A stretch of 64,000 bases of DNA from Escherichia coli (GCF_024223415.1 NZ_CP100500.1); one strand, 5' to 3'; shown: positions 43,682 to 63,851, counted from the stretch's first letter. The notes: generated from the letters alone by a model not told the origin. Numbers and translations are program-made.

Positions 43682-43687
43682 GGTGCG
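43682..43687. repeat. target-site duplication, right copy (GGTGCG)
   Basis: Matches 6057-6062. Confidence 0.6.
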
Positions 43688-44012: not shown

Positions 44013-44023
44013 CGGAGTTTCTC

Positions 44024-45052: not shown

Positions 45053-45060
45053 GGATCACG

Positions 45061-46194
45061 ATGAAAGAGGTTCGTATTGGATTGATTGGCACCGGGTATA
45101 TTGGCAAGGCGCATGCCATTGCCTATGCCCAGGCACCGACGGTGTTCAATCTGCGCGGCAAACTGGTGCGCGAGATGGTGGCTGAGGTGAACCCGGCGCT
45201 GGCGGCAGAACGCGCGCAGGCGTTTGGCTTCAATCGCTCAACCGGAGACTGGCGGGTGCTCGTGGCCGACCCGGCCATTGATGTGGTGGATATTTGCTCC
45301 CCTAACCATCTTCACAAAGAGATGGCGCTGGAGGCGATCCGCCACGGCAAGCACGTCTATTCGGAAAAGCCGCTGGCACTGAATGCCCACGACGCGCGTG
45401 AGATGGTCGACGCTGCGAAGCGGGCAGGGGTGAAAACGCTGGTGGGTTTCAATTACATGAAAAACCCGACGGCACAGTTGGCGAAAGAGATTATTGCGCG
45501 CGGCGAAATTGGTGAGGTGATCCACTTCTACGGAACCCACAACGAAGACTATATGGCCGACCCGCTTTCCCCTATTCACTGGCACTGTTTTAAAGAGACC
45601 GCCGGACTGGGGGCTCTGGGTGACTTGGCGGCACATATCGTCAATATGGCCCAGTATCTGGTGGGAGAGATTGAGCAGGTCTGTGGCGATCTGAAAATTG
45701 TGGTGCCGGCACGTCCGGCAAAGGCCGGATCGTCGGAAATGGTCACCGTGGAAAATGAAGATCAGGCCCACGCGATGGTGCGCTTTGCGGGCGGGGCGCA
45801 GGGCGTCATTGAAACTTCCCGCGTCGCCTGCGGCCGCAAGATGGGGCTGTCATATGTCATTACTGGTACCAAAGGAGCGATCAGTTTTACCCAAGAGCGG
45901 ATGGCAGAGATAAAGCTCTATCTACATGATGATCCGGTGAACCGTCAGGGGTTCCGGACACTGTTGGTCGGTCCGGCACACCCGGATTACGGCGCGTTTT
46001 GCATGGGCGCAGGTCATGGTATCGGCTTTAACGATCAAAAAACGGTGGAAGTGCGTGATCTGGTAGACGGCATTGCCACCGACGCACCGATGTGGCCGGA
46101 CTTCGAAGAGGGCTGGAAGGTCTCGCGCGTGCTGGATGCCATCGCACTCTCACACCAGCAGGGCCTCTGGCTGAACGTGAATGACATTGTCTGA
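45061..46194 (+). CDS. Gfo/Idh/MocA-family oxidoreductase (inositol dehydrogenase-like)
   Basis: Rossmann motif GLIGTGYIGKAH; GAGGA RBS before ATG 45061. Confidence 0.8.
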   Translation: MKEVRIGLIGTGYIGKAHAIAYAQAPTVFNLRGKLVREMVAEVNPALAAERAQAFGFNRSTGDWRVLVADPAIDVVDICSPNHLHKEMALEAIRHGKHVYSEKPLALNAHDAREMVDAAKRAGVKTLVGFNYMKNPTAQLAKEIIARGEIGEVIHFYGTHNEDYMADPLSPIHWHCFKETAGLGALGDLAAHIVNMAQYLVGEIEQVCGDLKIVVPARPAKAGSSEMVTVENEDQAHAMVRFAGGAQGVIETSRVACGRKMGLSYVITGTKGAISFTQERMAEIKLYLHDDPVNRQGFRTLLVGPAHPDYGAFCMGAGHGIGFNDQKTVEVRDLVDGIATDAPMWPDFEEGWKVSRVLDAIALSHQQGLWLNVNDIV

Positions 46195-46206
46195 AGAGGG
46201 TTCAAC

Positions 46207-48111
46207 GTGGAAAAGCAGTTTGATGTGATATGCATGGGCCGCGTGGCGGTAGACCTCTACAGCCAGCAAATTGGTGCCCGCCTGGAGGATGTGTCGAGCT
46301 TCGCCAAATATCTCGGCGGCTCGTCCGGCAACGTGGCGTACGGTACCGCGCGTCAGGGCTTACGCTCGTCAATGCTGGCGCGCGTTGGCGATGAACATAT
46401 GGGGCGCTTCCTGCGGGAAGAGTTAAACCAGGTGGGCTGCGATACCAGCCATCTGATCACCGATAAAGAACGCCTTACGGCGCTGGTGCTACTCGGCATT
46501 AAAGACCGGGACACCTTTCCTCTGATTTTTTATCGCGATAACTGCGCGGATATGGCGATTACTGCCAGCGATGTGGACGAAAGCTACATTGCCTCCGCAC
46601 GGTGTATTGCCATCACCGGGACTCACCTTTCTCACCCGCAGACCCGCGAGGCGGTGCTGACGGCGCTGAATTACGCCCGCCGTCACGGCGTGCGCACGGT
46701 GCTGGACATCGACTACCGTCCGGTGCTGTGGGGACTAACCTCTCTAGGAGACGGCGAAACGCGTTTTATCGTTGCCGAACAGGTTACCCGTGAACTTCAG
46801 GAGGTGCTACACCTTTTCGACGTCGTTGTCGGCACCGAAGAGGAGTTTCACATTGCGGGGGGCAGCACCGATACGTTGCAGGCGCTGGCGCAGGTGCGCC
46901 ACGTCAGCAAGGCGACACTGGTTTGCAAGCGCGGCGCGCTGGGCTGTTCGGTGTATACCGATGCCATTCCACCTCGGCTGGATGACGGTCTGACGGTGAC
47001 CGGCGTGCGTGTGGAGGTGCTTAACGTCCTTGGCGCGGGAGATGCGTTTATGTCTGGCCTGCTGCGCGGTTACCTGAACGACGAGGGCTGGGAGCAGGCG
47101 TGCCGCTACGCCAACGCCTGTGGGGCGCTGGTGGTCTCGCGCCACGGCTGTGCACCGGCGATGCCGAGCAAAATTGAGCTGGATGATTACCTCTCCCGCG
47201 CCGCGCTCGTTCCGCGCCCGGACATTGACCCGCGTCTTAACCATCTGCACCGGGTGACCACCCGCCGCCGCGAATGGCCGGAGCTGTGCGTGATGGCGTT
47301 CGATCACCGCAGTCAACTGGAAGATATGGCGCTGCAGTGCGGCGCGTCGCTTAAGCGTATTCCGGCGCTGAAACAGCTGATCCTGCAGGCCAGCCGAGAG
47401 GCGGCAAGCTCTGCCGGGCTGGAGGGGAAAGCCGGCCTGCTGTGCGATGGCACCTTTGGTCAGGATGCGCTGAACGCCATTACCGGCGAAGGGTGGTGGA
47501 TTGGTCGTCCCATTGAACTGCCAGGCTCGCGTCCGCTGGAGATGGAGCACGGTAACATTGGTACCCAGCTTATCAGTTGGCCGCAGGAGCATGTGGTGAA
47601 GTGCCTGGTCTTTTTCCATCCGGAAGATGCCCACGGCTTGCGTCTGGAGCAGGAGCAGAAAATCGCCGAGGTGTACCACGCCTGCTGTCAGTCCGGACAT
47701 GAACTGCTGCTGGAGGTGATATTACCCGCCACTATGCCGCGCAGTGACGAACTTTATCTGCGTGCCATTTCCCGCTTCTACAACCTTGGCATTTACCCCG
47801 ACTGGTGGAAACTGCCGCCGCTCTCCGCCGAAGGCTGGACGGCACTGAGCGAGATTATCGCGCGCCGGGACCCGCACTGCCGCGGCGTGGTGATCCTCGG
47901 TCTGGATGCTCCGGCGGAACAGCTGCGTGCCGACTTCAAAGCTGCCGCGGGGCAGGCGCTGGTGAAAGGCTTCGCCGTGGGGCGCACGCTGTTTGGCGAT
48001 GCCTCCCGCGCATGGCTGAAACACGATATTGACGATGCGCAGCTGGTGGCGCGCATCCGGGACAACTACCTGCAGCTTATCGCCTGGTGGCGCGAGCGCG
48101 GACACGCATAA
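46207..48111 (+). CDS. iolC: 5-dehydro-2-deoxygluconokinase (PfkB kinase with C-terminal extension)
   Basis: 634 aa; PfkB motifs (GGxxxN, VLGAGDAF); GTG start with AGAGGG RBS. Confidence 0.8.
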   Translation: MEKQFDVICMGRVAVDLYSQQIGARLEDVSSFAKYLGGSSGNVAYGTARQGLRSSMLARVGDEHMGRFLREELNQVGCDTSHLITDKERLTALVLLGIKDRDTFPLIFYRDNCADMAITASDVDESYIASARCIAITGTHLSHPQTREAVLTALNYARRHGVRTVLDIDYRPVLWGLTSLGDGETRFIVAEQVTRELQEVLHLFDVVVGTEEEFHIAGGSTDTLQALAQVRHVSKATLVCKRGALGCSVYTDAIPPRLDDGLTVTGVRVEVLNVLGAGDAFMSGLLRGYLNDEGWEQACRYANACGALVVSRHGCAPAMPSKIELDDYLSRAALVPRPDIDPRLNHLHRVTTRRREWPELCVMAFDHRSQLEDMALQCGASLKRIPALKQLILQASREAASSAGLEGKAGLLCDGTFGQDALNAITGEGWWIGRPIELPGSRPLEMEHGNIGTQLISWPQEHVVKCLVFFHPEDAHGLRLEQEQKIAEVYHACCQSGHELLLEVILPATMPRSDELYLRAISRFYNLGIYPDWWKLPPLSAEGWTALSEIIARRDPHCRGVVILGLDAPAEQLRADFKAAAGQALVKGFAVGRTLFGDASRAWLKHDIDDAQLVARIRDNYLQLIAWWRERGHA

Positions 48112-48122
48112 TGGAGACGACA

Positions 48123-49013
48123 ATGAGTGTACAACTGGGCATCAACCCGCTGACGTGGACGAACGATGATCTGCCTTCACTGGGCGCGGAGACATCTCTG
48201 GAGACCTGCCTGAGTGAAGGGAAAGAGGCCGGTTTTGCCGGCTTCGAACTGGGCAATAAATTCCCGAGAGAAGCGCGCCTGCTCGGCCCCATTTTGCAGC
48301 GCCACGACCTGCAGTTGGTCTCCGGCTGGTATTCCGGCCGCCTGTTGGAACGCAGTGTAGAGGACGAGATTGCTGCTGTGCAGTCGCATCTGACGCTGCT
48401 GCGAGAGCTGGGTGCAAAAGTACTGGTTTTTGCGGAAGTGAGTGGCTGCATTCACGGTGAGCAGCAGACGCCGGTTCACCTGCGCCCACGTTTCCCGCAG
48501 GAATGCTGGAAAGAGTATGGTGAGAAACTCACCGTGTTCGCCCGCTATACGCAGCAACAGGGGGTACAGATTGCTTACCACCATCATATGGGCACGGTGA
48601 TTGAGTCCGCTCAAGACGTGGACAACCTGATGCTCCACACGGGTGAGGAGGTTGGTTTACTGCTGGATACTGGCCACCTGACCTTTGCCGGGGCCGATCC
48701 GCTGGCGGTGGCACAGCGATGGGCATCGCGCATCAATCATGTTCACTGCAAAGATGTGCGCGCCGACGTGCTGGCGGACGTCAAAAACCGTAAAACCAGC
48801 TTCCTCGACGCGGTGCTGAGCGGCGTGTTTACCGTGCCGGGTGACGGCTGCGTGGATTATCCGCCGATTATGCAACTGCTGAAAACGCAGGATTATCACG
48901 GTTGGCTGGTGGTGGAGGCTGAACAGGACCCGGCGATCGCCCATCCGCTGACCTACGCCCGTCTGGGATATAACAATCTGAGCCGCCTGGCGCGCGACGC
49001 CGGGCTTATCTGA
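48123..49013 (+). CDS. iolE: inosose dehydratase (xylose-isomerase-like TIM barrel)
   Basis: About 296 aa; start at ATG 48123 just after the iolC stop. Confidence 0.8.
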   Translation: MSVQLGINPLTWTNDDLPSLGAETSLETCLSEGKEAGFAGFELGNKFPREARLLGPILQRHDLQLVSGWYSGRLLERSVEDEIAAVQSHLTLLRELGAKVLVFAEVSGCIHGEQQTPVHLRPRFPQECWKEYGEKLTVFARYTQQQGVQIAYHHHMGTVIESAQDVDNLMLHTGEEVGLLLDTGHLTFAGADPLAVAQRWASRINHVHCKDVRADVLADVKNRKTSFLDAVLSGVFTVPGDGCVDYPPIMQLLKTQDYHGWLVVEAEQDPAIAHPLTYARLGYNNLSRLARDAGLI

Positions 49014-49022
49014 GGAGGTGAC

Positions 49023-49844
49023 ATGTCACGTCTGTTATCACGCTGGCAACAGCCGAACGCTGAGGGGCGGACTCAGTCTGTCACGCCGGAAAGCGCCGGA
49101 TGGGGATATGTTGGCTTTGAGGCCTATGAACTTGAGGAAGGGCAGCAACTGACGCTGCCCGCTGTCAGTGAAGAGCGCTGTCTGGTGCTGGTGGCCGGGC
49201 GCGCTTTCATCAGCACTCCTTCTGCACAGTTTATTGATATCGGGGAGCGGATGAGCCCGTTCGAGCGCATCAAACCTTGGGCGGTTTACGTCACCCCGCA
49301 GGAGGCAGTGCAGGTGAAGGCGCTGACGAAACTGGAGCTGGCAGTCTGTACCGCTCCGGGAAAAGGGACATACCCGACGCGGTTGATTGCACCTCAGGAT
49401 ATCGATGGCGAAGCGCGCGGTAACGGCCACAACCAGCGTTATGTGCATAATATTTTGCCGGAAGACAAGCCCGCTGACAGCCTGCTGGTCGTCGAGGTCT
49501 GGACCAACGAAGGCTGTACCAGTTCGTACCCGAGCCATAAACACGATACGAATAACCCGCCTCAGGAGAGCTATCTGGAGGAGACCTATTACCATCGCCT
49601 CAACCCGGAACAGGGGTTCTGCATGCAGCGGGTGTATACCGATGACCGCACACTTGATGAATGTATGGCGGTCTATAACCGTGACGTGGTCATGGTGCCG
49701 AAAGGGTACCACCCGGTGGCGACGATGGCCGGGTATGACAGTTATTACCTTAACGTGATGGCCGGACCAGTACGTAAATGGATATTCACCTGGGAAAAGG
49801 AACACTCATGGATAAACACAGAGTATTCTGCCATTTCTTTATAA
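49023..49844 (+). CDS. iolB: 5-deoxy-glucuronate isomerase
   Basis: 273 aa; IolB-type sequence; last gene of the cluster. Confidence 0.8.
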   Translation: MSRLLSRWQQPNAEGRTQSVTPESAGWGYVGFEAYELEEGQQLTLPAVSEERCLVLVAGRAFISTPSAQFIDIGERMSPFERIKPWAVYVTPQEAVQVKALTKLELAVCTAPGKGTYPTRLIAPQDIDGEARGNGHNQRYVHNILPEDKPADSLLVVEVWTNEGCTSSYPSHKHDTNNPPQESYLEETYYHRLNPEQGFCMQRVYTDDRTLDECMAVYNRDVVMVPKGYHPVATMAGYDSYYLNVMAGPVRKWIFTWEKEHSWINTEYSAISL

Positions 49845-50588: not shown

Positions 50589-51494
50589 CTATATTTCCAG
50601 ACACCTGTTATCACTTAACCCATTACTGGCTTGCTGCCGTAGATATTCCCGTGGCGAGCGATAACCCAGTGCACTATGCGGATGCCATTCGTTATAATGC
50701 TCGAACGCCTCTGCAAGGTTCTTTGCTGCCGTTAACCCGTCTGGTTTGGGCATGACACTGATGTAGTCACGCTTTATCGTTTTCACGAAGCTCTCTGCTA
50801 TGCCGTTACTCTCCGGACTCCGCACCGCCGTGCTCTTCGGTTCAAGCCCCAACATCCGGGCAAACTGCCGTGTTTCATTAGCCCGGTAGCATGAACCATT
50901 ATCCGTCAGCCACTCTACTGGAGACGCCGGAAGCTCGTTGCCGAAGCGGCGTTCCACCGCTCCTGGCATGACGTCCTGTACTGTTTCACTGTTGAAGCCG
51001 CCCGTAGTGACCGCCCAGTGCAGTGCCTCACGGTCACAGCAGTCCAGCGCGAACGTGACTCGCAGTTTTTCTCCGTTATCACAGCGGAACTCGAACCCGT
51101 CAGAGCACCATCGCTGATTACTTTCTTTCACAGCCACTCTGCCTGTATGTGCCCGTTTCGATGGCGGTACAGCAGGTTTTCGCTCAAGCAACAGCGCATT
51201 CTGGCGCATGATCCGGTAAACACGTTTGGCATTGATCGCAGGCATACCATCAAGTTCGGCCTGTCTGCGAAGCAGCGCCCATACCCGACGATAACCATAC
51301 GTGGGCAGCTCTCCGATAACATGGTGTATACGGAGAAGCACATCCGTATCATCAGTGTGACGACTGCGGCGGCCATCCATCCAGTCATCGGTTCGTCTGA
51401 GAATGACGTGCAACTGCGCACGCGACACCCGGAGACAACGGCTGACTAAGCTTACTCCCCATCCCCGGGCAATAAGGGCGCGTGCGCTATCCAC
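50589..51494 (-). CDS. insD: IS2 transposase OrfB (DDE domain)
   Basis: 301-aa IS3-family integrase-core sequence. Confidence 0.85.
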
Positions 51495-51817
51495 TTTTTT
51501 GCCCGTCCATATTCAACGGCTTCTTTGAGGAGTTCATTTTCCATCGTTTTCTTGCCGAGCAGGCGCTGGAGTTCTTTAATCTGCTTCATGGCGGCAGCAA
51601 GTTCAGAGGCAGGAACAACCTGTTCTCCGGCGGCGACAGCAGTAAGACTTCCTTCCTGGTATTGCTTACGCCAGAGAAATAACTGGCTGGCTGCTACACC
51701 ATGTTGCCGGGCAACGAGGGAGACCGTCATCCCCGGTTCAAAGCTCTGCTGAACAATTGCGATCTTTTCCTGTGTGGTAAGCCGTCTGCGTTTCTCCGGT
51801 CCTAAGACATCAATCAT
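51452..51817 (-). CDS. insC: IS2 OrfA (HTH protein)
   Basis: [12 protein letters not shown]... HTH/leucine-zipper protein overlapping OrfB. Confidence 0.85.
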
Positions 51818-52030
51818 CTGCTCTCCAATGACTAGTCTAAAAACTAGTATTAAGACTATCACTTAAATAAGTGATACTGGTTGTCTGGAGATTCAGGGGG
51901 CCAGTCTAGAGATATAAAGAGCGTCTAGCTCCGGATATATCTTTGACACTACGACAGTACTTGCAAAACGGGGTTGGTAATGCTGCCAACTTACTGATTT
52001 AGTGTATGATGGTGATTTTAAGGTGCTTGC

Positions 52031-52306
52031 GTGGCTTCCATTTCCATCAGATGTCCTTCCTGCTCCGCTACTGAAGGCGTGGTGCGTAACGGCAAAAGCA
52101 CTGCCGGACATCAGCGCTATCTCTGCTCTCATTGCCGTAAAACATGGCAACTACAGTTCACTTACACCGCCTCTCAGCCCGGTACGCACCAGAAAATCAT
52201 TGATATGGCCATGAATGGCGTCGGATGTCGCGCCAGTGCACGCATTATGGGCGTTGGCCTCAACACGGTTTTACGTCACTTAAAAAACTCAGGCCGCAGT
52301 CGGTAA
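52031..52306 (+). CDS. insA: IS1 InsA
   Basis: 91-aa zinc-finger protein typical of IS1. Confidence 0.85.
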
Positions 52307-52728
52307 CCTCGCGCATACAACCGGGCAGTGATGTGATTGTCTGCGCTGAAATGGACGAACAGTGGGGCTACGTCGGTGCTAAATCACGTCAGCGCTGGCT
52401 GTTTTACGCGTATGACAGGATACGGAGGACGGTTATGGCGCACGTATTCGGTGAACGCACTCTGGCCACACTGGAGCGTCTTCTGAGCCTGCTGTCGGCC
52501 TTTGACGTGGTGATATGGATGACGGATGGCTGGCCACTGTATGAATCCCGCCTGAAGGGAAAGCTGCACGTAATCAGCAAGCGATATACGCAGCGAATTG
52601 AGCGGCATAACCTGAATCTGAGGCAGCACCTGGCACGGCTGGGACGGAAGTCGCTGTCGTTCTCAAAATCGGTGGAGCTGCATGACAAAGTCATCGGGCA
52701 TTATCTGAACATAAAACACTATCAATAA
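52225..52728 (+). CDS. insB: IS1 InsB (expressed as an InsAB' frameshift fusion)
   Basis: Overlapping -1 frame ORF with IS1 transposase sequence. Confidence 0.8.
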
Positions 52729-52743
52729 GTTGGAGTCATTACC

Positions 52744-53432
52744 AGGAACGAGTACAGGAAAAATTCAGTTCTTTTTTAATTGCCTTTAAAGATGGTGTCA
52801 TCGGAGGGATACTGTCAGGTATTACCACAACGCTGTTAAATATATTCCTGACGACGGAAAGAATGATTGTCCGGCTTATCAGGGAAATGTGGAACAACCT
52901 CGTTCAGGCCTTTAAAGTCCTGGTATTTAACCCGGAGGGATTATCGCCGGGGCAGTTAGCCAAAGCGGTCACTAAACTGATAGCAGCAGGTGTGGCTGTT
53001 GCCGGTGGGGTGATGATAAATGAGGCGATGGCGCAGATCCTTATTTTTCCATTTGGTTCAGAGCTTGCTGCCTTTTGTGGTGCGCTGACGACAGGTATTC
53101 TCGGGCTGGTGATGAATTATTATCTCGAATATAGCGAGGTTATGCAGCGGGTATGGGCATTTCTGGACAAATTTAAGGACAAATTCCAGCGGTCACTGGA
53201 ATACTTTCAGGCAGTCAATGCTGAACTTGATCGCTATCTTGTGGAACTTACTGCACTGGAATTTTCTGTTGATGCTGCCGCGTTAAATCATTTTTCACTT
53301 CATCTGGATAGCGTAAACAGTGAGATAGAGCGCGGACTTCTGCTGAGAGAAGAAGTCAGCCGACGAGGGATTGCGTTGCCGTTTGAGTCAGGAAATGTGG
53401 CTTCTGTTCGTGACTGGTTAAATAAGCGATGA
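52744..53432 (+). pseudogene. 3' fragment of a gene truncated by IS1
   Basis: Reading frame is open from the IS1 boundary; no start codon or RBS until internal ATG 52863. Confidence 0.5.
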
Positions 53433-54032: not shown

Positions 54033-54166
54033 CGTTCCTGTTTACGCCGTTACATTTGTGGCGGCGGATGATACCTGTTTTATGATTATTCAGAAAAATG
54101 TATTTACCTGTCACGGCATGTTCAGCGAGCGGCGCCGGACAGAAATATCGCTTTTACTCAATTATT

Positions 54167-55771
54167 ATGAAAATTAATCTTCCATTCATACACTGGCCAC
54201 GGATTAGCAATGATAAGCGCCTCGTGTTATCAGTGGTTGTCTTTATCCTTTTTAATCTCCTTGTATCCTCAGGAGCGCATCTGATTTACCGGATATTATT
54301 CTTTATCCTGGCGCTTCTTATTATTAAGGCAATGAAATCGCTTACGTTGCGTTTGATTCTTGCCTTCCCGTTCACATTACTGACTGCTGCAGATATCAGT
54401 ATCAGCCTGTATTCATGGTGTACATTTGGCACAACATTTAATGATGGTTTTGCAATCAGTATCCTTCAGACAGATCCTGATGAAGTAATAAGAATGTTCA
54501 GGATGTATGTTGTTTATGTTATCGCATTTATTATCCTCTTTTTATTGTTCTTCTGTTCAGCAATAAATAAAACGTCCTCATTGCCATCGGAAAAGGTCAC
54601 GGTAATTACATTTTTATTGTTAATTACAGTAACGTTATATTCTTCCTTCCAGTTTGCGTTGAAGAAACAGTATCAAATAAATGAAGTTGATCCTTACATA
54701 GTCGCTTCCCGGTTTGCCACATATACCTCTTTCTTTAATCTGAACTATTTTGCACTGGCCGCAAAGGAGCATCAGAGATTAATGACGATTGCTGATACCA
54801 TACCTCACTACGATCTGGTGATTACGGATAACAACACTGACGTATTTGTTCTGGTGATTGGTGAATCTGCAAGGACTGATAACATGTCCATTTACGGGTA
54901 TTCGCGCCCTACCACACCAGAGCTTCAGAAACAGAAATCACGACTGAAACTGTTCACTCAGGCAATCAGCGGGGCACCTTATACCGCTCTTGCGGTACCG
55001 CTGGCATTATCTGCTGATACCGTGCTGCATCATGATGTTCGCCGTTACCCCGATAATATTATCAACATGGCGAATCAGGCGGGGTTCGATACCTGGTGGC
55101 TCAGTGCGCAGTCCGCTTTCCGACAGAACGGAACGGCTGTGGCCAGTATCGCCATGCGGGCCAGAAACAGAATTTATGTCAGAGGCTATGATGAATTACT
55201 GCTCCCACACCTGGCTGAAGCACTGAACAGTAATCCGGGGAGCAGGAAACTGATTGTTCTGCATCTGACGGGCAGCCATGAGCCAGTCTGCAGTAACTGG
55301 CCCAGAGATAAAGCCGTGTTTAAACCGCTGGATACAGAAGAAGTCTGCTACGATAATTCCATTCATTATACCGACAGTTTGTTGGGACAGGTTTTCACCA
55401 TGCTGGAAACGCGTCAGGCATCCGTCATGTATTTTTCAGATCATGGCCTGGAGTATGACCCGACAAAAGAGCATGCCTATTTTCATGGCGGAATAAAACC
55501 CAGCCAGCAGGCTTATCATGTTCCGATGTTTATCTGGTACAGCCCGGCACTGGGAGAGCATGTCGATCGCCAGACGGTGAACAGCGTTTTTTCCACTGCG
55601 TATAATGATTATCTGATTAATGCATGGATGGGCGTAACCAGACCGGCTCAACCGAAAACGCCGGAGGAGGTGATTACCCGCTGGCAGGGGAAATCCGTGG
55701 TTTTTGATGCCAGTCATAACGTGTTTGATTACAAAGTATTACGAAAGAACTTTAATGAACTCCAGGAATAA
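54167..55771 (+). CDS. phosphoethanolamine transferase family protein (sulfatase-like)
   Basis: N-terminal multi-TM region then sulfatase-type domain (VIGESARTD ... LHLTGSHEP ... SDHG); start at ATG 54167 is approximate. Confidence 0.7.
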   Translation: MKINLPFIHWPRISNDKRLVLSVVVFILFNLLVSSGAHLIYRILFFILALLIIKAMKSLTLRLILAFPFTLLTAADISISLYSWCTFGTTFNDGFAISILQTDPDEVIRMFRMYVVYVIAFIILFLLFFCSAINKTSSLPSEKVTVITFLLLITVTLYSSFQFALKKQYQINEVDPYIVASRFATYTSFFNLNYFALAAKEHQRLMTIADTIPHYDLVITDNNTDVFVLVIGESARTDNMSIYGYSRPTTPELQKQKSRLKLFTQAISGAPYTALAVPLALSADTVLHHDVRRYPDNIINMANQAGFDTWWLSAQSAFRQNGTAVASIAMRARNRIYVRGYDELLLPHLAEALNSNPGSRKLIVLHLTGSHEPVCSNWPRDKAVFKPLDTEEVCYDNSIHYTDSLLGQVFTMLETRQASVMYFSDHGLEYDPTKEHAYFHGGIKPSQQAYHVPMFIWYSPALGEHVDRQTVNSVFSTAYNDYLINAWMGVTRPAQPKTPEEVITRWQGKSVVFDASHNVFDYKVLRKNFNELQE

Positions 55772-55867
55772 TTCATTAAAGTAATTTACTTCGCTATCCT
55801 TTTTCCAGTTACTCACAAAGAAAAATATTCAGAAAATAATTCCCGGGTTGGCAGCCCGGGATGATTA

Positions 55868-56143
55868 CTATTTTAATGGATTGTTAATCTTTGCATATTC
55901 AAACGGGCTGATACATTGTTCTCTGTTCGCATCCAGAAAATCTGCCCACCACTGTAGCATCAGTCGACGTTCTTCCAGATGTTCTGCTTTATGGATATAC
56001 GCAGCACGTACACCATTACGCTCCTGATGACTCATCTGACGTTCCACTGCATCGCGGGACCACAAACCTGATTTAATCAATGCACTGCACGCCATCGCCC
56101 GGAATCCATGGCCACAGACCTCTTCCTGCGTATTGTATCTCAT
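55868..56143 (-). pseudogene. C-terminal remnant of a tyrosine integrase
   Basis: ..GHGFRAMA..RQMSH..R..YIH..LQWWADFLD.. parallels the C-terminus of the intact integrase at 59068-60252; no N-terminal domain. Confidence 0.6.
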
Positions 56144-56451
56144 CAGTCTCAGTGCGTTATTGACCGTATTTTAACTAACGAGCTTGTGCCTGATTACCAA
56201 TAATTATCAGTTCATATTTTATGCAGACTTGTGCCAATCACTTGTTTTGAAAGAGGTTCTAAGATTCGTTGCATGCATTCTTGACCCTCAATGGTAATGT
56301 CTCGTTAAATATGATAGATATTAGCCGTAATTTTATTTTAGCGGGGTCGGTAAATTGGGGTGGAATTAGTCGATAAAAATATTAGAATACACTATTTTGC
56401 AGGCAAAATAGTGATATGATACATTTTTGTGTAAATTTATAAGGAGATAAG

Positions 56452-57375
56452 ATGGATAAGTTAAGGGCGCTAATTAGCCGAGCATCTAAGCTTTATAACA
56501 GGAATATAGATCATCTTCCAATAACTTTAGAACTAATCGAGTATTCAATGGGGCTTTTGGATAAGAAAGCAAGTTACGGTTATTTTGGTTCATTTGAAGG
56601 GAAAAAAGAAATAGACTACTATGCATTCTTTAGTAATAACGAGATCTCAAGACCTATTAGAGATGATTTATATATCAGAGATGTAAGTATCTATAAGAAA
56701 TTAAGTGACAACTTGTTTGTCGATTTAAAACAGTTCCGTTCTGTCTGGAGTTCAGATAAATCAATAGTAGCAAATAAAATTATATATACATCAGTTATGT
56801 CAGTTGCCTGCGCTTTTGATTTGTGGAAGAAAGGTAGTAGAAAAACACCTGGTACATTTTTTGAGATTTATATTGCTGCTCTATTGAAAGTAATGCTTCC
56901 GAATGAAGTTTTTTCAAAGCATATCCCATTGATTGATTCGATGAAAAATGATGAGGGGCTTAGAGATTCGGCGAATATTTCTACTGATCTGGTAATAAAA
57001 AGCCGCGCAAATGTTAATCGCGGAGTAGTTATCCCATTAAAAATAACAACAAGAGAGCGTATTGTTCAGCCATTTGCTCATCAACGAATTCTGGATTCAT
57101 ATTTTGGGAATGGTTTTTTTCATTCTTTCTTGGCATGCATTAGTGAAACTCAACAAGATAAGTTTAATCGAGAAGTAAACCATATATGTGTTCCTGGAAC
57201 AATACGATTGTATCAGAAATATTTATCAAGTATTGCGGGAATATATTATTGTGATATTCCAGAGAGATATTTACAAGCTGATTTGACCAGTATAATACCG
57301 GTCAAATCAATGGGGGAGTTTTTGTCAGATATAAATGATTTTTTTATGGAAATAGCTGAATCTGATCCTCATTAG
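56452..57375 (+). CDS. hypothetical protein, candidate restriction endonuclease
   Basis: 307-aa ORF in AT-rich DNA, convergent with and overlapping the cytosine-5 methyltransferase gene by 32 bp; no recognisable family by eye. Confidence 0.6.
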   Translation: MDKLRALISRASKLYNRNIDHLPITLELIEYSMGLLDKKASYGYFGSFEGKKEIDYYAFFSNNEISRPIRDDLYIRDVSIYKKLSDNLFVDLKQFRSVWSSDKSIVANKIIYTSVMSVACAFDLWKKGSRKTPGTFFEIYIAALLKVMLPNEVFSKHIPLIDSMKNDEGLRDSANISTDLVIKSRANVNRGVVIPLKITTRERIVQPFAHQRILDSYFGNGFFHSFLACISETQQDKFNREVNHICVPGTIRLYQKYLSSIAGIYYCDIPERYLQADLTSIIPVKSMGEFLSDINDFFMEIAESDPH

Positions 57376-58468
57376 TCTTCTCAACAGGGTTTTGATAGTT
57401 GCTTTTTTCATAATTTTGTTTATTAAGACATTTAATAATTGCTGTTCCTGCCGCTTTAGCTACTGGCGGCGGAACAGCATTCCCAATTTGTAATCTTATG
57501 GCATCTCTTTTACCATAAAACCGATAGTCAACAGGGAATCCTTGTAACATTGCACCCTCTCTAAGAGTTATAGCTCTGTTCTGAGAAGGATGTCCATATC
57601 TGCCTCTGGTGAAGCTATCAAATCCCGCAGTAATTGTTGGACATTGTTTATCCCATTCAAGCCTCCCGTACACGTCAGGCCATCCGCCGGAGTTAGTATC
57701 AACATTTTGATGGCATTTTAGTCTCAAATCATGCGGAATATCCTTCCACCCCCCTCCGGGGGGAACATAAGAGAACCTTTCTTCATTAAGTTTAGTTATT
57801 TTACACTTAATATGATTAGGTATCTCGCAATGTTCACTATAATCGTCAGGAGGGGGAGGAAGATTACCAATAACATCTTTGATAGTAAGTTCGTTATCAA
57901 CTTTCTCCAGTTTAGGATAATCGCAGTTCTCAGATTTATCTATTCCGATCATAATAAAGCGCCCTCTCTTCTGGGCAACGCCAAAATCTGAAGAGCAAAT
58001 GAAAAAAGTGAATATGTTATATTTAAATAATTTCTCTTTTACTTCTCTTATTAAATCCTGTCCTCTCTTTTGTCCAAAAATTTCGACATTTTCAAACAGA
58101 AAAGCCCGGGGGTTTAGCTCATTTACCAGTCTGGAATATTCCAGTACTAACTTATTTCTTTCATCATTTAACAGATGAGCTCCTTTTCTTTGTTTGGAAA
58201 AGCCCTGACATGGCGGCCCGCCGCTAAAAAGATCCAGTCGGGAGTTTATTCCCGCTTTGTCTAAAAGAAACTTACCGCTAATAACCGAAGCATCTAATTG
58301 AAGACAATGCCCTCCAAGATTATTATTATATGTTTTCACGGCATCCTCATTGATATCAAATGCTAATTTGATATCGAACCCCGCTTGCTTAAGCCCAAGG
58401 GACATTCCTCCAGCACCACAGAAGCCTTCAATGCATGTAAGTTTTTGAACAGTATCAGCTTTACTCAT
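57344..58468 (-). CDS. DNA cytosine-5 methyltransferase
   Basis: Motif I FCGAGG, motif IV PPCQGFS, motif VI ENV, motif VIII QKRGR, motif X GNAV. Confidence 0.85.
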   Translation of the reverse strand: MSKADTVQKLTCIEGFCGAGGMSLGLKQAGFDIKLAFDINEDAVKTYNNNLGGHCLQLDASVISGKFLLDKAGINSRLDLFSGGPPCQGFSKQRKGAHLLNDERNKLVLEYSRLVNELNPRAFLFENVEIFGQKRGQDLIREVKEKLFKYNIFTFFICSSDFGVAQKRGRFIMIGIDKSENCDYPKLEKVDNELTIKDVIGNLPPPPDDYSEHCEIPNHIKCKITKLNEERFSYVPPGGGWKDIPHDLRLKCHQNVDTNSGGWPDVYGRLEWDKQCPTITAGFDSFTRGRYGHPSQNRAITLREGAMLQGFPVDYRFYGKRDAIRLQIGNAVPPPVAKAAGTAIIKCLNKQNYEKSNYQNPVEKTNEDQIQLFP

Positions 58469-59067
58469 GTTAACTCACTTAATGCTCATTAATCTTCCTA
58501 GTATAACGATATTTATCAAACAAAACCATAGCTACATTTTAAACTAAAAGTAGCTAATAAGAACGATTGAATGACTTAATTTATATAAATAAGATATCCA
58601 GTATTGATACATCATGTGTTCAGCATGATGTATGTGCAACTGAAGCATCATTCGAAGTTTTCCTCAATATTCATATTCTGCATATATGCTATTCCAGATA
58701 ACTGGCCTGCCATTCGATATTATGACGAAGCCTGATTATGCTAATGCATCATACGCTATAACCCGGTATTTATGGCCACAGATATTTTGGATTGTGTCAT
58801 CTCCTGTAACCTTAAGGGGGGGATTGACGGTGTTTTATCTGCTTGCCCTGTGAGTACATGCATTTCCATAACATTCAGGCTATTTTCACCTACCGGAATC
58901 TGAAGTTCAGTCAGTATGCCTGCAACCTGTTTATGGTGTTGAACAGGGTTCAATAGCAGAATTTGGGCTTCTGGAGTGAGTTCAGAATGTGTTGGTAAAT
59001 CAAGCCACAATAAAACCGTTCAGTGGTCTGACTGGATGGCTCGTTATTATATCCACAGAGCTCTCAT

Positions 59068-60252
59068 TTATAGTGCGCACCTGGAGAGCGAATCAATGTA
59101 ATCTGCGTACCATTGCATCATTTCACGACGACCATCCAGGTACTGCGCATGGTTATAGGTACCCCTGATGGAATTTTTATCCACATGAGCTAACTGCATT
59201 TCAATCCAGGCAGAATTAAAGCCCTGTTCGTGCAGAATGGTACTCATGGTGTGACGAAAACCATGACCGGTTGCCCTGCCATCGTAACCGATACGTTTGA
59301 GCACCATATTGATGCTGGCTTCGCTCATTGGCTTGTTGATATCACAACGTCCCGGAAAAACCAGCCGGTATTGCCCGGAGAAAGTTTTGAGCTGCAGCAG
59401 AATGTCAGTGGCCTGTCGTGACAGTGGTACGACATGTTTACGTCGCATTTTCATGCGGCTTTCAGGGATTGTCCACAGGGCATTATCAAAATCAATTTCT
59501 GACCATTCAGCGAACCGTAGCTCAATGGTTCTGAGACCTGTCAGAAGCAGAAGATTTGTCGCCATGCGGGTAACAGGACTGCCATGATATTCAGCGAGCT
59601 TCCGGATAAAAGCTGGGAGCTCATCTGCTCTCAGGTGAGGGAAATGCGCCGCTTTTGGTGCCGCCAGTGTACTGGTCAGTTCAGATGCCGGATTGACAGT
59701 GGCTCGTCCGGTGGCGATGGCATAACGAAAAATCTGATTACAGTATTGGCGTACCTTACGAAGTTTCTCCAGCGAGCCACGTTTTTCTATGCGGCGCAGA
59801 ATTTCCAGCATTTCCAGCGGGAGGATATCAGTAACGCTTCGTTTGCCCAGATACGGAAAAATATCTTTATCCAGAGCCTCCAGTACGCTTCTGGCGTAAC
59901 TTTCAGACCATGACAAAGATTTATGCTGGTGCCATTCCGTAGCGAGGGCATGGAACGTATTGGTGGCAGAGATTTTCTGAGTGAGTTTTTCCTTTCGCTT
60001 CTTTTCGCCCGGGTCACCACCTTCGGAGATGATTTTTCGGGCATCGTCGCGTTTGATTCTGGCCTCAGCAAGGGAGACGTCGGGATAGACGCCGAGGGCC
60101 AGTTTTTTCTCTTTTCCTGCTATCCGGTATTTAAGCCGCCAGTAGCGGGCTCCCGTGGTTTTTACCAGCAGATATAAACCACGTTCGTCAGAGAGTTTAT
60201 AGTCTTTTTCTTTAGGTCTGGCTGTTTCGACCTGTCTGGCTGTAAGTGCCAT
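59068..60252 (-). CDS. P4-type tyrosine integrase
   Basis: MALTARQVETARPKEKDYKLSDERGLYL... N-terminus and HxxR...Y catalytic region; AGGAG RBS; adjacent to the tRNA-Phe 3' end. Confidence 0.85.
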   Translation of the reverse strand: MALTARQVETARPKEKDYKLSDERGLYLLVKTTGARYWRLKYRIAGKEKKLALGVYPDVSLAEARIKRDDARKIISEGGDPGEKKRKEKLTQKISATNTFHALATEWHQHKSLSWSESYARSVLEALDKDIFPYLGKRSVTDILPLEMLEILRRIEKRGSLEKLRKVRQYCNQIFRYAIATGRATVNPASELTSTLAAPKAAHFPHLRADELPAFIRKLAEYHGSPVTRMATNLLLLTGLRTIELRFAEWSEIDFDNALWTIPESRMKMRRKHVVPLSRQATDILLQLKTFSGQYRLVFPGRCDINKPMSEASINMVLKRIGYDGRATGHGFRHTMSTILHEQGFNSAWIEMQLAHVDKNSIRGTYNHAQYLDGRREMMQWYADYIDSLSRCAL

Positions 60253-60320
60253 ATGGGGGCTCCTGAAACTGACTGAACACAATGAGCCCCCACCGGTGCC
60301 CCCAATGAACGCTTGATTGA

Positions 60321-60410
60321 GAGAGAGTTCAGTAGAGTTCGGTGGAGTTCAGGATGTTCAGATTGCTTGTAACGATGTGATTATACTTGAGTTTCGTGGA
60401 GTTCGGGAGA
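60321..60410. repeat. phased GAGTTC-type direct repeats (candidate integrase arm-type sites)
   Basis: GAGTTC at 60325, 60335 and 60345 with 10-bp spacing, further GTTC variants to 60407, between int and tRNA. Confidence 0.4.
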
Positions 60411-60428
60411 TGAATCTGGAAGTGAAAG

Positions 60429-60504
60429 TGGTGCCCGGACTCGGAATCGAACCAAGGACACGGGGATTTTCAATCCCCTGCTCTACCGACTGAGCTATCC
60501 GGGC
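60429..60504 (-). tRNA. pheV: tRNA-Phe (anticodon GAA)
   Basis: 76-nt sequence identical to E. coli tRNA-Phe with CCA end; named pheV from yqgA/speC synteny. Confidence 0.95.
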
Positions 60505-60609
60505 AACGGGGCGAATTAAACCTGATTCGCCTCGTCTCGTCAATCAAATTTCTTCAATTTACTGCAGACTGCACAATCTATCATCACTTTGCCGCTATTG
60601 CACGCATTG

Positions 60610-61317
60610 TCAGGCAAACCAGGCGGTCCAGGCGGCGGAAAGCGGCATTGCCAGAAGGAGTGCTGGAAGCATGTTGACCACCGGGAACATTTTAATGCCA
60701 CAGATGCGTAATCCGGTTGCCAGCAGCAATAAACCGCCTACGGCGCTGAAGTCTGCCATCATCGACGGTGTGGTCAGCGGTAATATCAGCGCGGCAGCCC
60801 ACGCCAGCGTTAACTGGATGATCAGTAATGGGATACTAATCACCGATACCGCAATACCCAGCGAGCAGGCGAAGATCATCGCCGTAAAGAAATCAAGAAA
60901 TGACTTGGCGATTAAAATACTCGGATCGCCGGTCATCCCTTCGTTCATCGCCCCGAAGATCCCGGTGCCGCTGGCGCAAAACAGGACAATAATCGCGACA
61001 TAATTCTGAATAAAAGATTCATGCGCTGGCTTCTTACGTGAGTGACGAAACAGATTTTGTGCTTTGGCGACCGCTGTATTGACGCCTTTCTCCAGCAGAC
61101 AAATTTCGCCGATTAATGCTCCGAGTAAGGTTGCTAAAACCATCGCTGGAAGGTTGGCGCATTTCACCACCAGTAAAATACCAATCCCCAGCGATGCCAG
61201 ACCAAAAATTGATGTCATGGAGACGCGGATACGTTCCGGTAAGCGTTGGCTAAGCAGTGCACCGAGCATGCCACCCAGTAATATTGCACTTGCGTTGATA
61301 AAAGGGCCGATGACCAC
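60610..61317 (-). CDS. yqgA: inner membrane protein YqgA-like
   Basis: 235 aa; multi-TM; conserved position between speC and pheV. Confidence 0.8.
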   Translation of the reverse strand: MVIGPFINASAILLGGMLGALLSQRLPERIRVSMTSIFGLASLGIGILLVVKCANLPAMVLATLLGALIGEICLLEKGVNTAVAKAQNLFRHSRKKPAHESFIQNYVAIIVLFCASGTGIFGAMNEGMTGDPSILIAKSFLDFFTAMIFACSLGIAVSVISIPLLIIQLTLAWAAALILPLTTPSMMADFSAVGGLLLLATGLRICGIKMFPVVNMLPALLLAMPLSAAWTAWFA

Positions 61318-61715
61318 AAGAGTTCCTGTTAACTGTATTGTTTGATTTTCTTATTATGAACTTTTTGCCTTGTTGATGGCTTGTCTGGTCGCAAAGTCCT
61401 GGCTTGCACGTCTTAGCGAAAGGTGCCATGATTGCGCGAATTTTCTCCTCTCTGTACGGAGTTTGCCCGATGCACGCCATCTCCTTACATTCTCTCGCTT
61501 ATCGCCGTTTCGCGCGAAACCCTTCTCTTTTTATGCTACTGCTCATGCGGTGAAGTTAACGCACGTTCACTGCAGGACAACAGTAAAATCAGAGCGTTTC
61601 TGCTTTTACTGATGTCTGGCGGTCGGAGCTGGTGACCAGTTTGACCCATATCTCATGGGGCAGGGTTTTACACCTTGTCCGGTATTCTTACTTCCCCGAA
61701 ACGGGTTTTGCGCTT

Positions 61716-63851
61716 ATGAAATCAATGAATATTGCCGCCAGTAGTGAACTGGTATCCCGACTTTCTACTCATCGCCGCGTGGTGGCGTTGGGAGATACTG
61801 ATTTTACGGACGTCGCGGCAGTCGTCATTACCGCTGCGGATAGTCGCAGTGGCATTCTTACGTTGCTTAAGCGCACCGGTTTTCATCTACCGGTGTTTTT
61901 GTATTCCGAACATGCTGTTGAATTACCTGCGGGCGTTACGGCGGTAATCAACGGCAACGAGCAGCATTGGCTGGAGCTGGAATCCGCAGCCTGTCAGTAT
62001 GAAGAGAATTTGCTGCCACCGTTTTATGACACGCTGACGCAGTACGTTGAGATGGGCAACAGCACCTTTGCTTGCCCTGGGCATCAACATGGTGCGTTTT
62101 TTAAAAAGCATCCTGCCGGACGCCATTTTTACGATTTCTTTGGTGAGAACGTCTTTCGCGCCGATATGTGTAACGCTGACGTAAAATTGGGCGATCTGCT
62201 TATTCATGAAGGATCGGCGAAAGATGCGCAGAAATTCGCAGCCAAAGTCTTTCATGCCGATAAAACCTATTTTGTACTGAACGGCACATCGGCAGCGAAT
62301 AAAGTGGTGACGAATGCGCTGTTAACGCGTGGCGATCTGGTGCTCTTCGACCGTAACAACCATAAGTCGAATCATCACGGCGCGCTGATTCAGGCGGGGG
62401 CGACGCCGGTCTATCTGGAAGCTTCACGCAACCCGTTTGGTTTCATTGGCGGTATTGATGCGCACTGTTTTAATGAAGAGTATCTGCGCCAGCAAATTCG
62501 CGACGTTGCGCCAGAAAAAGCCGACCTGCCGCGCCCGTTTCGCCTGGCGATTATTCAGCTGGGAACCTATGACGGCACTGTCTATAACGCCCGTCAGGTG
62601 ATCGATACCATTGGGCACCTGTGTGATTACATTCTGTTTGATTCCGCGTGGGTCGGTTACGAACAGTTTATCCCGATGATGGCGGATAGCTCGCCGCTGC
62701 TGTTAGAACTTAACGAAAACGATCCAGGGATCTTTGTGACTCAGTCGGTGCACAAACAGCAGGCGGGATTCTCACAGACGTCGCAGATCCATAAAAAAGA
62801 TAACCATATCCGCGGACAGGCGCGTTTTTGCCCGCATAAGCGATTGAATAACGCCTTTATGTTCCATGCTTCTACCAGCCCTTTCTATCCGCTGTTTGCT
62901 GCACTGGATGTTAACGCCAAAATTCATGAAGGGGAGAGTGGGCGTCGGCTGTGGGCTGAGTGCGTTGAGTTGGGTATTGAGTCGCGCAAGGCTATTCTTG
63001 CGCGCTGTAAGCTGTTCCGCCCGTTTATCCCGCCCGTTGTTGATGGCAAATTGTGGCAGGATTATCCGACATCAGTGTTAGCCAGCGACCGCCGTTTTTT
63101 CAGTTTTGAGCCGGGGGCGAAGTGGCACGGCTTTGAAGGATATGCCGCGGATCAGTATTTTGTTGATCCGTGCAAGCTGTTACTCACTACACCAGGTATC
63201 GATGCCGAAACCGGCGAATATAGCGACTTTGGCGTTCCGGCGACGATTCTGGCGCACTATCTGCGTGAGAACGGCATTGTGCCGGAGAAGTGCGATCTCA
63301 ACTCCATTCTGTTCTTATTAACTCCGGCGGAAAGCCACGAGAAGCTGGCACAACTGGTGGCGATGCTGGCGCAATTTGAACAGCATATTGAGGATGACTC
63401 GCCGCTGGCTGAGGTGTTGCCGAGCGTTTATAACAAATATCCGGTGCGCTATCGCGACTACACCCTGCGCCAGTTGTGTCAGGAGATGCACGATCTGTAT
63501 GTCAGTTTCGACGTCAAAGACCTACAAAAAGCGATGTTCCGCCAGCAGAGTTTCCCGTCAGTGGTGATGAACCCCCAGGATGCGCATAGCGCTTATATTC
63601 GCGGTGACGTGGAGTTGGTGCGGATTCGTGATGCCGAAGGGCGAATTGCGGCAGAAGGGGCGTTGCCTTATCCACCTGGCGTGCTTTGCGTGGTACCCGG
63701 GGAAGTCTGGGGTGGGGCGGTTCAACGTTATTTCCTTGCACTGGAAGAAGGGGTGAATTTGTTGCCGGGATTTTCGCCGGAGCTGCAAGGTGTTTATAGC
63801 GAAACCGATGCGGATGGCATGAAACGGTTGTACGGTTATGTGTTGAAGTAA
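61716..63851 (+). CDS. speC: ornithine decarboxylase, constitutive
   Basis: 711-aa protein starting MKSMNIAASSELVSRL..., near-identical to E. coli SpeC. Confidence 0.9.
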   Translation: MKSMNIAASSELVSRLSTHRRVVALGDTDFTDVAAVVITAADSRSGILTLLKRTGFHLPVFLYSEHAVELPAGVTAVINGNEQHWLELESAACQYEENLLPPFYDTLTQYVEMGNSTFACPGHQHGAFFKKHPAGRHFYDFFGENVFRADMCNADVKLGDLLIHEGSAKDAQKFAAKVFHADKTYFVLNGTSAANKVVTNALLTRGDLVLFDRNNHKSNHHGALIQAGATPVYLEASRNPFGFIGGIDAHCFNEEYLRQQIRDVAPEKADLPRPFRLAIIQLGTYDGTVYNARQVIDTIGHLCDYILFDSAWVGYEQFIPMMADSSPLLLELNENDPGIFVTQSVHKQQAGFSQTSQIHKKDNHIRGQARFCPHKRLNNAFMFHASTSPFYPLFAALDVNAKIHEGESGRRLWAECVELGIESRKAILARCKLFRPFIPPVVDGKLWQDYPTSVLASDRRFFSFEPGAKWHGFEGYAADQYFVDPCKLLLTTPGIDAETGEYSDFGVPATILAHYLRENGIVPEKCDLNSILFLLTPAESHEKLAQLVAMLAQFEQHIEDDSPLAEVLPSVYNKYPVRYRDYTLRQLCQEMHDLYVSFDVKDLQKAMFRQQSFPSVVMNPQDAHSAYIRGDVELVRIRDAEGRIAAEGALPYPPGVLCVVPGEVWGGAVQRYFLALEEGVNLLPGFSPELQGVYSETDADGMKRLYGYVLK

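Follow-up and report, generated by a model that had tools for sequence, protein, structure and literature searches.

Two classes of repeats and two integrase remnants at the tRNA-Phe end of a composite GI-pheV-type island in Escherichia coli

What makes up the junction between a tRNA-Phe gene and the island inserted next to it, and which proteins are likely to read the short repeats found there? The question was raised by positions 55,868 to 60,504 of a stretch of 64,000 nucleotides from Escherichia coli (GCF_024223415.1 NZ_CP100500.1), given as one strand and hereafter called the window, in which an intact P4-type integrase gene lies beside tRNA-Phe with phased GAGTTC repeats between them. 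The region forms that end of a GI-pheV-type genomic island which lies next to the tRNA (attL). It represents a known type of element, being one more composite variant in a GI-pheV family that is already very diverse, and not a new kind of system. The account given below joins the island end, the operation of its attachment-site (att) arm, and a history of accretion, and we consider it, taken jointly, reasonably probable. The sequences show the anatomy, the homologies, the conservation through the family, and the covariation; the pairing of proteins with repeats, autoregulation, the sequence of accretion events, and present mobility are inferred from them.

The tRNA-Phe (GAA) gene was located at 60429..60504 on the minus strand (ARAGORN; 68 bits with the Rfam tRNA model), and since yqgA (60610-61317) and speC (61632-63851) lie beyond it, the locus is pheV. 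The last ~23 nt of the tRNA gene (60429-60451, minus strand) form the att core and the attL direct repeat; the attL/attR repeats of GI-pheV have been described in 23-nt and 19-nt forms (PMC11537424). GI-pheV islands are recognized by an intP4 gene next to the pheV-tRNA and by yqgA as the conserved gene upstream (PMC11537424), all of which were found at this locus. Leftward from pheV, the order was a 176-bp noncoding arm (60253-60428), the intact integrase gene int1, a 135-bp spacer, an integrase remnant (A), a DNA methyltransferase gene (M), a restriction endonuclease gene (R), a second integrase remnant (B), and the cargo. From the tRNA to remnant B, everything lies on the minus strand except R, which is on the plus strand.

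The int1 gene (59068..60252, minus strand) encodes an intact tyrosine integrase of the P4/SXT type (DUF4102), 394 amino acids (aa) long from a conserved ATG, and is transcribed away from the 3′ end of tRNA-Phe. Its product matched the Pfam domains Arm-DNA-bind_3 (PF13356, 8.6e-27), Phage_int_M (PF22022, 1.1e-30), and Phage_integrase (PF00589, 7.3e-26), and its catalytic set was complete (R241, K272, H330, R333, H356, and Y366); judged from its sequence, int1 looks functional. A preliminary description of this DNA had placed an intact P4-type integrase at the 3′ end of tRNA-Phe, which was confirmed, with a gap of 176 bp. Integrases with ~98% identical DNA adjoin tRNA-Phe in E. coli genomes (30 among the matches listed). 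Where the adjacent tRNA could be identified, relatives of at least 70% identity were nearly all at tRNA-Phe, with one 70% relative at tRNA-Asn, and more distant relatives adjoined tRNA-Arg, -SeC, -Thr, -Gly, and -Ser. The comparison set used throughout consisted of 80 loci with int1 relatives of 43-81% identity, which are designated by L numbers where they have to be told apart.

Two classes of repeats in the arm

Exact copies of GAGTTC were found on the plus strand at 60325, 60335, 60345, and 60399. The 10-bp phasing given in the preliminary description for the first three, with further variants, was therefore borne out by exact matches, and the variants include ATGTTCAG at 60354 and GAGTTT at 60389. 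The copies belong to two clusters on the minus strand, whose units are given here in the sense of int1. Cluster I (60389..60424), which contains the GAGTTC at 60399 and the GAGTTT at 60389, has four 10-bp units, CACTTC, TTCATC, GAACTC, and AAACTC, all ending in TC, and cluster II (60325..60359) has the units CTGAACAT, CTGAACTC, CCGAACTC, and CTGAACTC at spacings of 9, 10, and 10 bp. We designate them candidate boxes I and II of an excisionase (recombination directionality factor, RDF). The threefold hexamer at exact 10-bp spacing was the sole case in the 64 kb, and any such triple was seen in only 1 of 200 dinucleotide-preserving shuffles.

This arrangement was conserved across the family, since all relatives that were fetched carried two clusters of 10-bp-phased short direct repeats between the tRNA and int. 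The summed 4-mer autocorrelation of 44 non-redundant loci, which span seven different tRNA types, was 215 at lag 10 against an expected value of 25.6 (z = 28), and reached z = 14 at lag 20. The phased motif itself varied by clade, with GAACTC, NTCAAC, GTCTCY, GTCCAT, CATTACC, and ACGAT among its forms.

The spacer between the two clusters (60370..60385, minus strand) is a candidate bend site for integration host factor (IHF), a candidate −10 box of the int promoter Pint, or both. On the int-sense strand it contains TATAAT (60380-60385) overlapping AATCACATCGTTA (60370-60382), which has one mismatch to the IHF consensus WATCARNNNNTTR, and an AATCA/TATAAT-like element was present at the equivalent position in most relatives and in P4. 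A scan of 60200-60520 for two-hexamer promoters and for terminators found nothing. Int promoters of P4-type elements are bound by IHF and are repressed by the integrases they express (PMC7286903).

The second class of repeats lies directly beside the int1 start (60254..60304, minus strand) and is a TGGGGGC triplet, which we consider to contain probable integrase arm-type sites (P′ arm). Two int-sense copies at 60298-60304 and 60286-60292 are 12 bp apart, and an inverted copy at 60254-60260 stops one base before the int1 ATG. The exact pattern GGGGGC-N6-GGGGGC had a single occurrence in the window. The layout of two direct copies and one inverted copy was observed in 38 of 53 related loci, compared with 1.6 in shuffles, and takes the family form of two direct 6-8-mers 12 bp apart at about −50 and −38 with the inverted copy just before the ATG. 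The triplet, like the R and M pair described below, had gone unmentioned in the preliminary description.

A close counterpart is the attP-int region of phage P4 (NC_001609), which has the same order of core, two 10-bp-phased clusters, two tandem 12-bp GGGGGC(A) repeats, and an inverted copy at the int start, together with the same type of N-terminal arm-binding domain. In that record, the 12-mers TTGGGGGCATAA, which carry the GGGGGCA repeat, are annotated as 'attP arm sequence repeat', with two in tandem, one inverted over the int start, and two further copies beyond the core, and the two phased RTCC clusters between core and int carry no annotation. The repeats at 60254-60304 are the positional counterpart of these annotated arm repeats. 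The window differs from P4 in its target (tRNA-Phe, whereas P4 uses tRNA-Leu) and in its phased motif (GAACTC, whereas that of P4 is RTCC). In E. coli 55989, 12-bp repeats of the type GYGGGTAT were found on both attL and attR. In P4 and E. coli 55989 alike, the phased units were confined to the int-proximal arm, whereas the 12-bp repeats were present on both arms.

The GGGGGC copies could also act in the RNA, with GGGGGC...GGGGGC...GCCCCC forming a hairpin in the 5′ untranslated region that sequesters the ribosome-binding site of int. The inverted copy does overlap the Shine-Dalgarno and start region, an 8-bp stem of GGGGGCUC and GAGCCCCC is possible, and the inverted pair covaries between clades. 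P4 Vis, moreover, has been reported to bind RNA and to act post-transcriptionally. However, a hairpin leaves unexplained both the fixed 12-bp distance of the direct copies and the far-arm copies of attP and attR, which lie outside the int transcript, and the repeat type tracks the N-terminal domain of the integrase (Int). The single-sequence fold of the int leader only mildly beat its shuffles (z = −2.5) and paired other segments, and an Rfam search of 55500-60700 at a permissive threshold matched the tRNA alone, which also counts against an RNA element. We therefore regard the hairpin as quite improbable and consider the GGGGGC triplet, by comparison with its relatives, to be the likely set of arm-type sites for the Int N-terminal domain. 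In this function, all three copies would be bound by the N-terminal domain, and through the inverted one, which covers the start codon, Int would be able to repress int1.

Repeat classes and their probable protein partners

The preliminary description had expected the GAGTTC repeats themselves to be the arm-type binding sites of the integrase. In favour of this reading, they occupy the arm on which P′ sites would be sought, between core and int, and form direct arrays in helical phase; int1 has an arm-binding domain, and the phasing is conserved throughout the family. The two classes of repeats were compared with the proteins encoded beside them.

The type of the 12-bp repeat agreed with the signature of the Int N-terminal domain at all 43 classified loci at which that domain was readable. 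N-domains with (Y/S)WR(M/L)KYR were paired with GGGG(G/C/T)-type repeats (32 of 32 loci), those with GWR(F/Y)RY(R/Q) with GTATAG repeats (7 of 7), and those with SWR(Y/F)DYQ with CGGTAT repeats (3 of 3), while the single locus with VWRLRYR had a GGGCAT repeat.

Two Proteus islands at tRNA-Ser, L059 and L071, separate the classes by a natural swap. Their phased repeats are near-identical, with the motif GTCTCY in common, and they are 98% identical in Int from residue 96 to the end and 89% identical in the adjacent AlpA-like protein, whereas identity falls to 49% in the N-domain and the 12-bp repeats are GGGGTAC and TGTATAG, respectively. In this pair (3830-4290), the Int N-terminal domain and the adjoining 12-bp repeats have been exchanged as one module.

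Further comparisons, of the phased motif, pointed to the excisionase. An E. albertii element and P4 have the same tRNA target and an Int C-terminal part of 63% identity, and their excisionases are unrelated (31% identical) and their phased motifs different. The E. albertii element and L044, with an Int C-terminal part of 40% identity, have the TCAAC phased motif in common and an excisionase of 61% identity. In Mantel tests on 13 loci, a small and phylogenetically related sample, RDF identity was the best correlate of phased-motif similarity (r = 0.76, p = 2e-4), ahead of the Int C-terminal part (0.55) and the Int N-terminal part (0.42).

Since the 12-bp repeats track the N-domain and the phased repeats track the AlpA/Vis-type excisionase, the GAGTTC array is likelier to be an array of excisionase boxes. 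Several further observations speak against arm-type sites. The Proteus pair keeps its phased motif in spite of N-domains of 49% identity, and it is the 12-bp repeat that differs instead. In the P4 record, it is the GGGGGCA 12-mers that are labelled as arm repeats, and the phased RTCC units do not have this label. The restriction of phased units to the int-proximal arm in P4 and E. coli 55989 points the same way, and the N-domain gave the weakest of the three Mantel correlations. The GAGTTC repeats are therefore probably not the integrase arm-type sites they had been expected to be, as covariation with the N-domain fails, and we rate that assignment as unlikely.

It is more likely, from the comparison of related loci, that the GAGTTC arrays are boxes of an AlpA/Vis-type RDF flanking an IHF-like site. 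RDF operators consist of direct repeats spaced by roughly one turn of the helix, P4 Vis being one of the cited examples (PMC7498355), and the GAGTTC array consists of just such short direct repeats, several in number, on an att arm. Vis binds to P4 attP in electrophoretic mobility shift assays and footprints (PMC2603039). An excisionase of the AlpA/Vis family would accordingly bind both GAGTTC clusters on either side of the IHF-like site and bend the arm for excision, and from the same operators it might help to repress int. In P4, Vis reportedly protects two boxes, both situated between the core and the int gene.

A comparable regulatory layout has been described for the attL of KplE1 with IntS and TorI (PMC2951348). 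There, too, int faces the tRNA, its promoter overlaps with arm-type sites for Int as well as with sites for the RDF, and each of the two proteins represses the gene, a likeness that the window may share. KplE1 has a different integrase family and different motifs, and binding has been established by experiment in KplE1, whereas we infer it in the window.

Integrase remnants, the restriction-modification cassette, and probable accretion

The preliminary description had noted the C-terminal remnant of one second integrase about 3 kb away in the same orientation. This remnant was confirmed as remnant B (55871..56185, minus strand), a well-preserved 3′ fragment of a 420-aa pheU/pheV-type integrase that is 88% identical to residues 316-420 of a full-length pheU integrase and contains one in-frame stop. 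The short open reading frame (ORF) on which the earlier claim depended, 91 aa at 55868-56143, aligned to the int1 C-terminus with 40% identity (E = 8e-14), so that the refuting condition set for the claim did not arise. Remnant B retains the HGFR motif and the catalytic Tyr, and it shows a sharp switch in identity at 56185/56186.

The count of one did not stand, because there is another fragment at 58586..58932 (minus strand), remnant A. This is the decayed 3′ part of a 420-aa-type integrase, about residues 288-400, which was detected by tblastn with the STE15 pheU integrase (linked E = 8.9e-12) and carries stops and a frameshift at 40% GC. Its DNA was ~60-70% identical to reference integrases along its full length by sliding identity, and it was also matched by the integrases of E. 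albertii and Salmonella. The box I Arg is absent from both remnants.

Between the remnants lies a 2.2-kb restriction-modification (R-M) cassette (56383..58590), whose gene pair takes up most of the ~3 kb from int1 to remnant B; the cassette is delimited by the extent of its blastn homology with leuX islands of E. albertii and Salmonella. M (57344..58468, minus strand) is a C5-cytosine DNA methyltransferase of 374 aa (Pfam DNA_methylase 1.2e-56; TIGR00675 dcm; PADLOC MTase_II 3e-99), and the exact protein was found on 138 contigs. R (56452..57375, plus strand) is a Kpn2I-like type II restriction endonuclease of the CCGG family with 307 aa (PADLOC REase_II 6.5e-132). The two genes are convergent with 3′ ends that overlap by 32 bp, and both are intact, with lengths that match their clusters. 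No controller (C) gene was found, as the cassette extends just 122 bp beyond M on its upstream side and has no helix-turn-helix ORF there.

R aligned to PDB 6EKR over residues 1-299 (E = 3.7e-126, at an estimated identity of about two-thirds), an entry which we take to be Kpn2I, recognizing T/CCGGA (TCCGGA). The R and M genes of Kpn2I are reportedly convergent as well, with overlapping 3′ ends. Further homologues of R, 64-66% identical, are found beside a methyltransferase on small plasmids of Klebsiella, Enterobacter, and E. coli. Kpn2I was placed in the CCGG family by the paper on PfoI, and the window system resembles it (PMC6237814; PDB 6EKR) in the R alignment and in having a 5-methylcytosine (m5C) methyltransferase. 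It differs in being chromosomal and integrase-adjacent, whereas Kpn2I is borne on a small plasmid, and in having no controller gene. The cassette adds one chromosomal, controller-less relative to the Kpn2I family.

The cassette DNA was 82-84% identical in E. albertii and Salmonella enterica, where it is preceded at tRNA-Leu(CAA) by an intact 420-aa integrase gene and begins within a few bases of that gene's stop codon. Its GC content is 33-39%, compared with 49% in int1. Given its position behind an intact integrase in E. albertii and Salmonella, the cassette is a discrete low-GC unit that forms the first cargo behind P4-type integrases, and remnant A is presumably its former integrase in the window. 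Junction alignments revealed no terminal repeats or target duplications at the cassette ends, and a megablast search of 5,426 complete RefSeq E. coli genomes with the R-M segment gave no match. In L010 and L011 (9094-9921), R was called as a shortened product of 275 aa with M intact, which suggests that restriction has been lost and modification retained there.

A comparison with pheV and pheU islands of other E. coli genomes, which the preliminary description had proposed, was carried out. The block running from the tRNA through int, remnant A, M, and R to remnant B was ~98% identical to the window in ten draft E. coli assemblies, seven times at pheV (L003, L004, L006, L007, L009, L010, and L012) and three times at pheU (L005, L008, and L011). 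Because it is shared at this identity by both sites elsewhere in E. coli, the composite block is ancestral and was not accreted locally. In most carriers an extra 1.38 kb follows right after the remnant B stop (L003 10599-11975, equivalent to window position 55847/55871); the 347-aa product encoded there has faint TPR-like Pfam matches only, and the segment is absent from the window and from L012.

Serial accretion of islands at this tRNA, as suggested earlier from a single remnant, thus holds in part: two remnants in the same orientation fit it, but the accretion did not take place in this genome. In the simplest history, islands would arrive at tRNA-Phe one after another, the displaced integrase genes would lose their 5′ two-thirds to deletions that also took out the att sites lying inside, and the resulting fusion would become fixed and spread as one unit.

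The two remnants might instead record a single insertion, in which the R-M cassette entered one integrase pseudogene by a Campbell-type crossover or with a long target duplication, so that A and B are two copies of the same target. They do form direct repeats flanking the cassette and overlap in residues ~316-400. In E. coli 08-00022, int1 is followed directly by one remnant (residues 272-405), and this lone remnant resembles the spacer and 5′ part of A at 65-73% and the 3′ part of B at 93-100%. Long target duplications are also reportedly a mode of R-M insertion. However, remnant A nowhere changes from resident-like to foreign-like sequence, the two remnants share only ~55-65% identity although a duplication would start with identical copies, and the degenerate stretch 5′ of remnant B was not significant (E = 0.3). 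A single insertion therefore seems rather unlikely to us. As the main model for the block, a Campbell-type or target-duplication origin was rejected on account of the uniform divergence of remnant A in sliding identity.

The 3′ end of int1 has features of its own. The spacer after its stop codon (58933..59067, minus strand, 135 bp) is ~65-73% identical to its counterpart in E. coli 08-00022, where a terminator-like hairpin is present, and remnant B is ~93-100% identical in DNA to the remnant of that strain. Where other listed E. coli genomes have this integrase, their homology with the window stops ~12 bp inside the int1 3′ end (59068-59082), and the last residues vary by lineage (DSLSRCAL in the window versus DSLSEQ in 08-00022). 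From this break and these lineage-specific residues, the region of the int stop codon emerges as a recurrent junction for cargo exchange.

An intact integrase followed by a 3′ remnant occurs twice in the window and was also seen in Yersinia ruckeri (at tRNA-Phe), Serratia (at tRNA-Arg, with two remnants), Trabulsiella (at tRNA-SeC), Salmonella diarizonae, and E. coli 08-00022; the loci concerned are L024 (5278-5586), L029 (5318-5593 and 5605-5784), L036 (5469-5687), L039 (5275-5498), and L001 (5928-6401). The recurring remnants follow within ~110-160 bp of the intact gene; their left breakpoint is in every case just past that gene, and their right breakpoint varies over residues 272-346. One pattern in five genera might hide a more general mechanism. 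Rather than random decay, the succession of an intact integrase, 110-160 bp with a terminator, and the 3′ third of a 420-aa-type int gene could mark a systematic replacement of integrase modules, in which incoming arm sites, int, and terminator would displace the resident att arm and the 5′ two-thirds of its int and capture the cargo. The swap of N-domain and arm sites between L059 and L071 shows that sub-genic modules do exchange. Even so, we put forward systematic replacement as a speculative idea with a small chance of being correct.

Mobility, cargo, and relation to known islands

Several results weigh against the account as a whole. The attR end with its P arm was absent from the window, and no second GGGGGC-N6-GGGGGC pair, as expected of a far P arm, was found there. 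No ORF of the AlpA/Vis type was detected in the 64-kb window at E ≤ 1e-3, so the proposed boxes have no cognate protein in view. A scan of viral contigs for GGGGGC-N6-GGGGGC-N40-70-tRNA-Phe core gave 0 matches, and no attR was found in the flanks of the 80 related loci. The covariation tests rest on the few and related loci mentioned above; in the L059/L071 pair, the Int C-terminal part is as conserved as the RDF, and this pair alone cannot separate the two. Finally, since remnant A is uniformly ~65% identical to known integrases, its source and the order of events are not recoverable.

The search for a distal copy of the tRNA 3′ end was made in the window with the 23-nt repeat, its 22-nt deletion variant, which is a literature-reported form of the attL/attR repeat, and a 16-nt suffix, allowing up to 3 mismatches, and matched the tRNA alone. 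The distal repeat that had escaped detection by eye in the preliminary description was accordingly not found in the window by computation either. The island cargo reaches window position 1, and attR may therefore lie beyond the window. In E. coli NT1N31, the island is a 3-kb stump without attR. Two relatives of the tRNA-Phe clade, L023 and L028, do have an AlpA/Vis-like gene. With neither attR nor such an ORF in the window, mobility would rely on components outside the window or provided in trans.

These gaps could mean that the repeats are chance or non-functional sequences at the decaying end of an immobile island. Neither attR nor an excisionase gene is present in the window, two of the three integrase copies are dead, and 34% of GI-pheV islands have no attR (PMC11537424). 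We nevertheless consider a relic highly improbable, because position and phasing are conserved over more than 40 diverged loci while the motif changes, a pattern that decay does not give. In addition, int1 is intact with all its catalytic residues, and carriers have the same island at both pheV and pheU.

Among known islands, the window is closest to GI-pheV (PMC11537424), with the pheV 3′ end beside yqgA, an intP4-type integrase as the first gene, a modular cargo rich in insertion sequences (IS), and an attR that is often missing. The window variant is set apart by its 394-aa integrase allele, which is followed by a type II R-M cassette and the remnants of two integrases; the word "restriction" has 0 occurrences in the main text of that paper. 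In contrast to P4, vis/alpA and the P4 replication and helper-exploitation genes are not in view in the window. Integrase-only defence islands and integrase-adjacent defence hotspots, known from E. coli islands and P4-like satellites (PMC10121019, PMC9122126), likewise place a defence system directly beside a tRNA-borne P4-type integrase, and further mobility genes are absent from the vicinity. The window differs from them in that the integrase presumably carrying the cassette is dead (remnant A) and in that the cassette sits inside a larger composite island.

The first cargo gene beyond remnant B (54098..55771, plus strand) encodes an EptA/CptA-like phosphoethanolamine transferase of 557 aa (Pfam Sulfatase), which scored far below all curated NCBIfam cut-offs, those of all MCR families included, and is kept after remnant B in other carriers. 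An IS3-family element (orfA 51452-51862, orfB 50589-51494) lies beside an IS1 (51976-52743), and this pair (50589-52743) truncates a 523-aa ORF that other carriers have in full, with the remainder at 52863-53432. Farther left is a myo-inositol catabolism and transport cluster (631-6180 and 43671-49844), which comprises an IolD-like thiamine pyrophosphate enzyme, two IolG-like oxidoreductases, an IolC-like protein (PfkB and DUF2090), an IolE-like protein, and IolB; as this cargo reaches position 1, the island extends past the window start. An ABC-transporter ATPase gene (flanks 4840-6180 and 43671-44012) is split by a Mu-like transposable prophage of ~37 kb (6300-43682), with genes for tail fibre, baseplate J, tape measure, sheath, Mu-type portal, terminase, and a DDE transposase (35776-37545). 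The part at 31000-43682 was 99% identical to prophages of many E. coli genomes.

P4-type island integrases are ubiquitous in the pathogenicity and defence islands of Enterobacterales, and their att arms have rarely been dissected. The comparison suggests a two-class sequence rule for these arms, in which the 12-bp-spaced repeats with their inverted start-codon copy follow the Int N-domain and the 10-bp arrays follow the excisionase. If binding confirms the rule, arm sites and excisionase boxes would be readable directly from sequence, and the dependence of islands on a trans-acting excisionase would become predictable.

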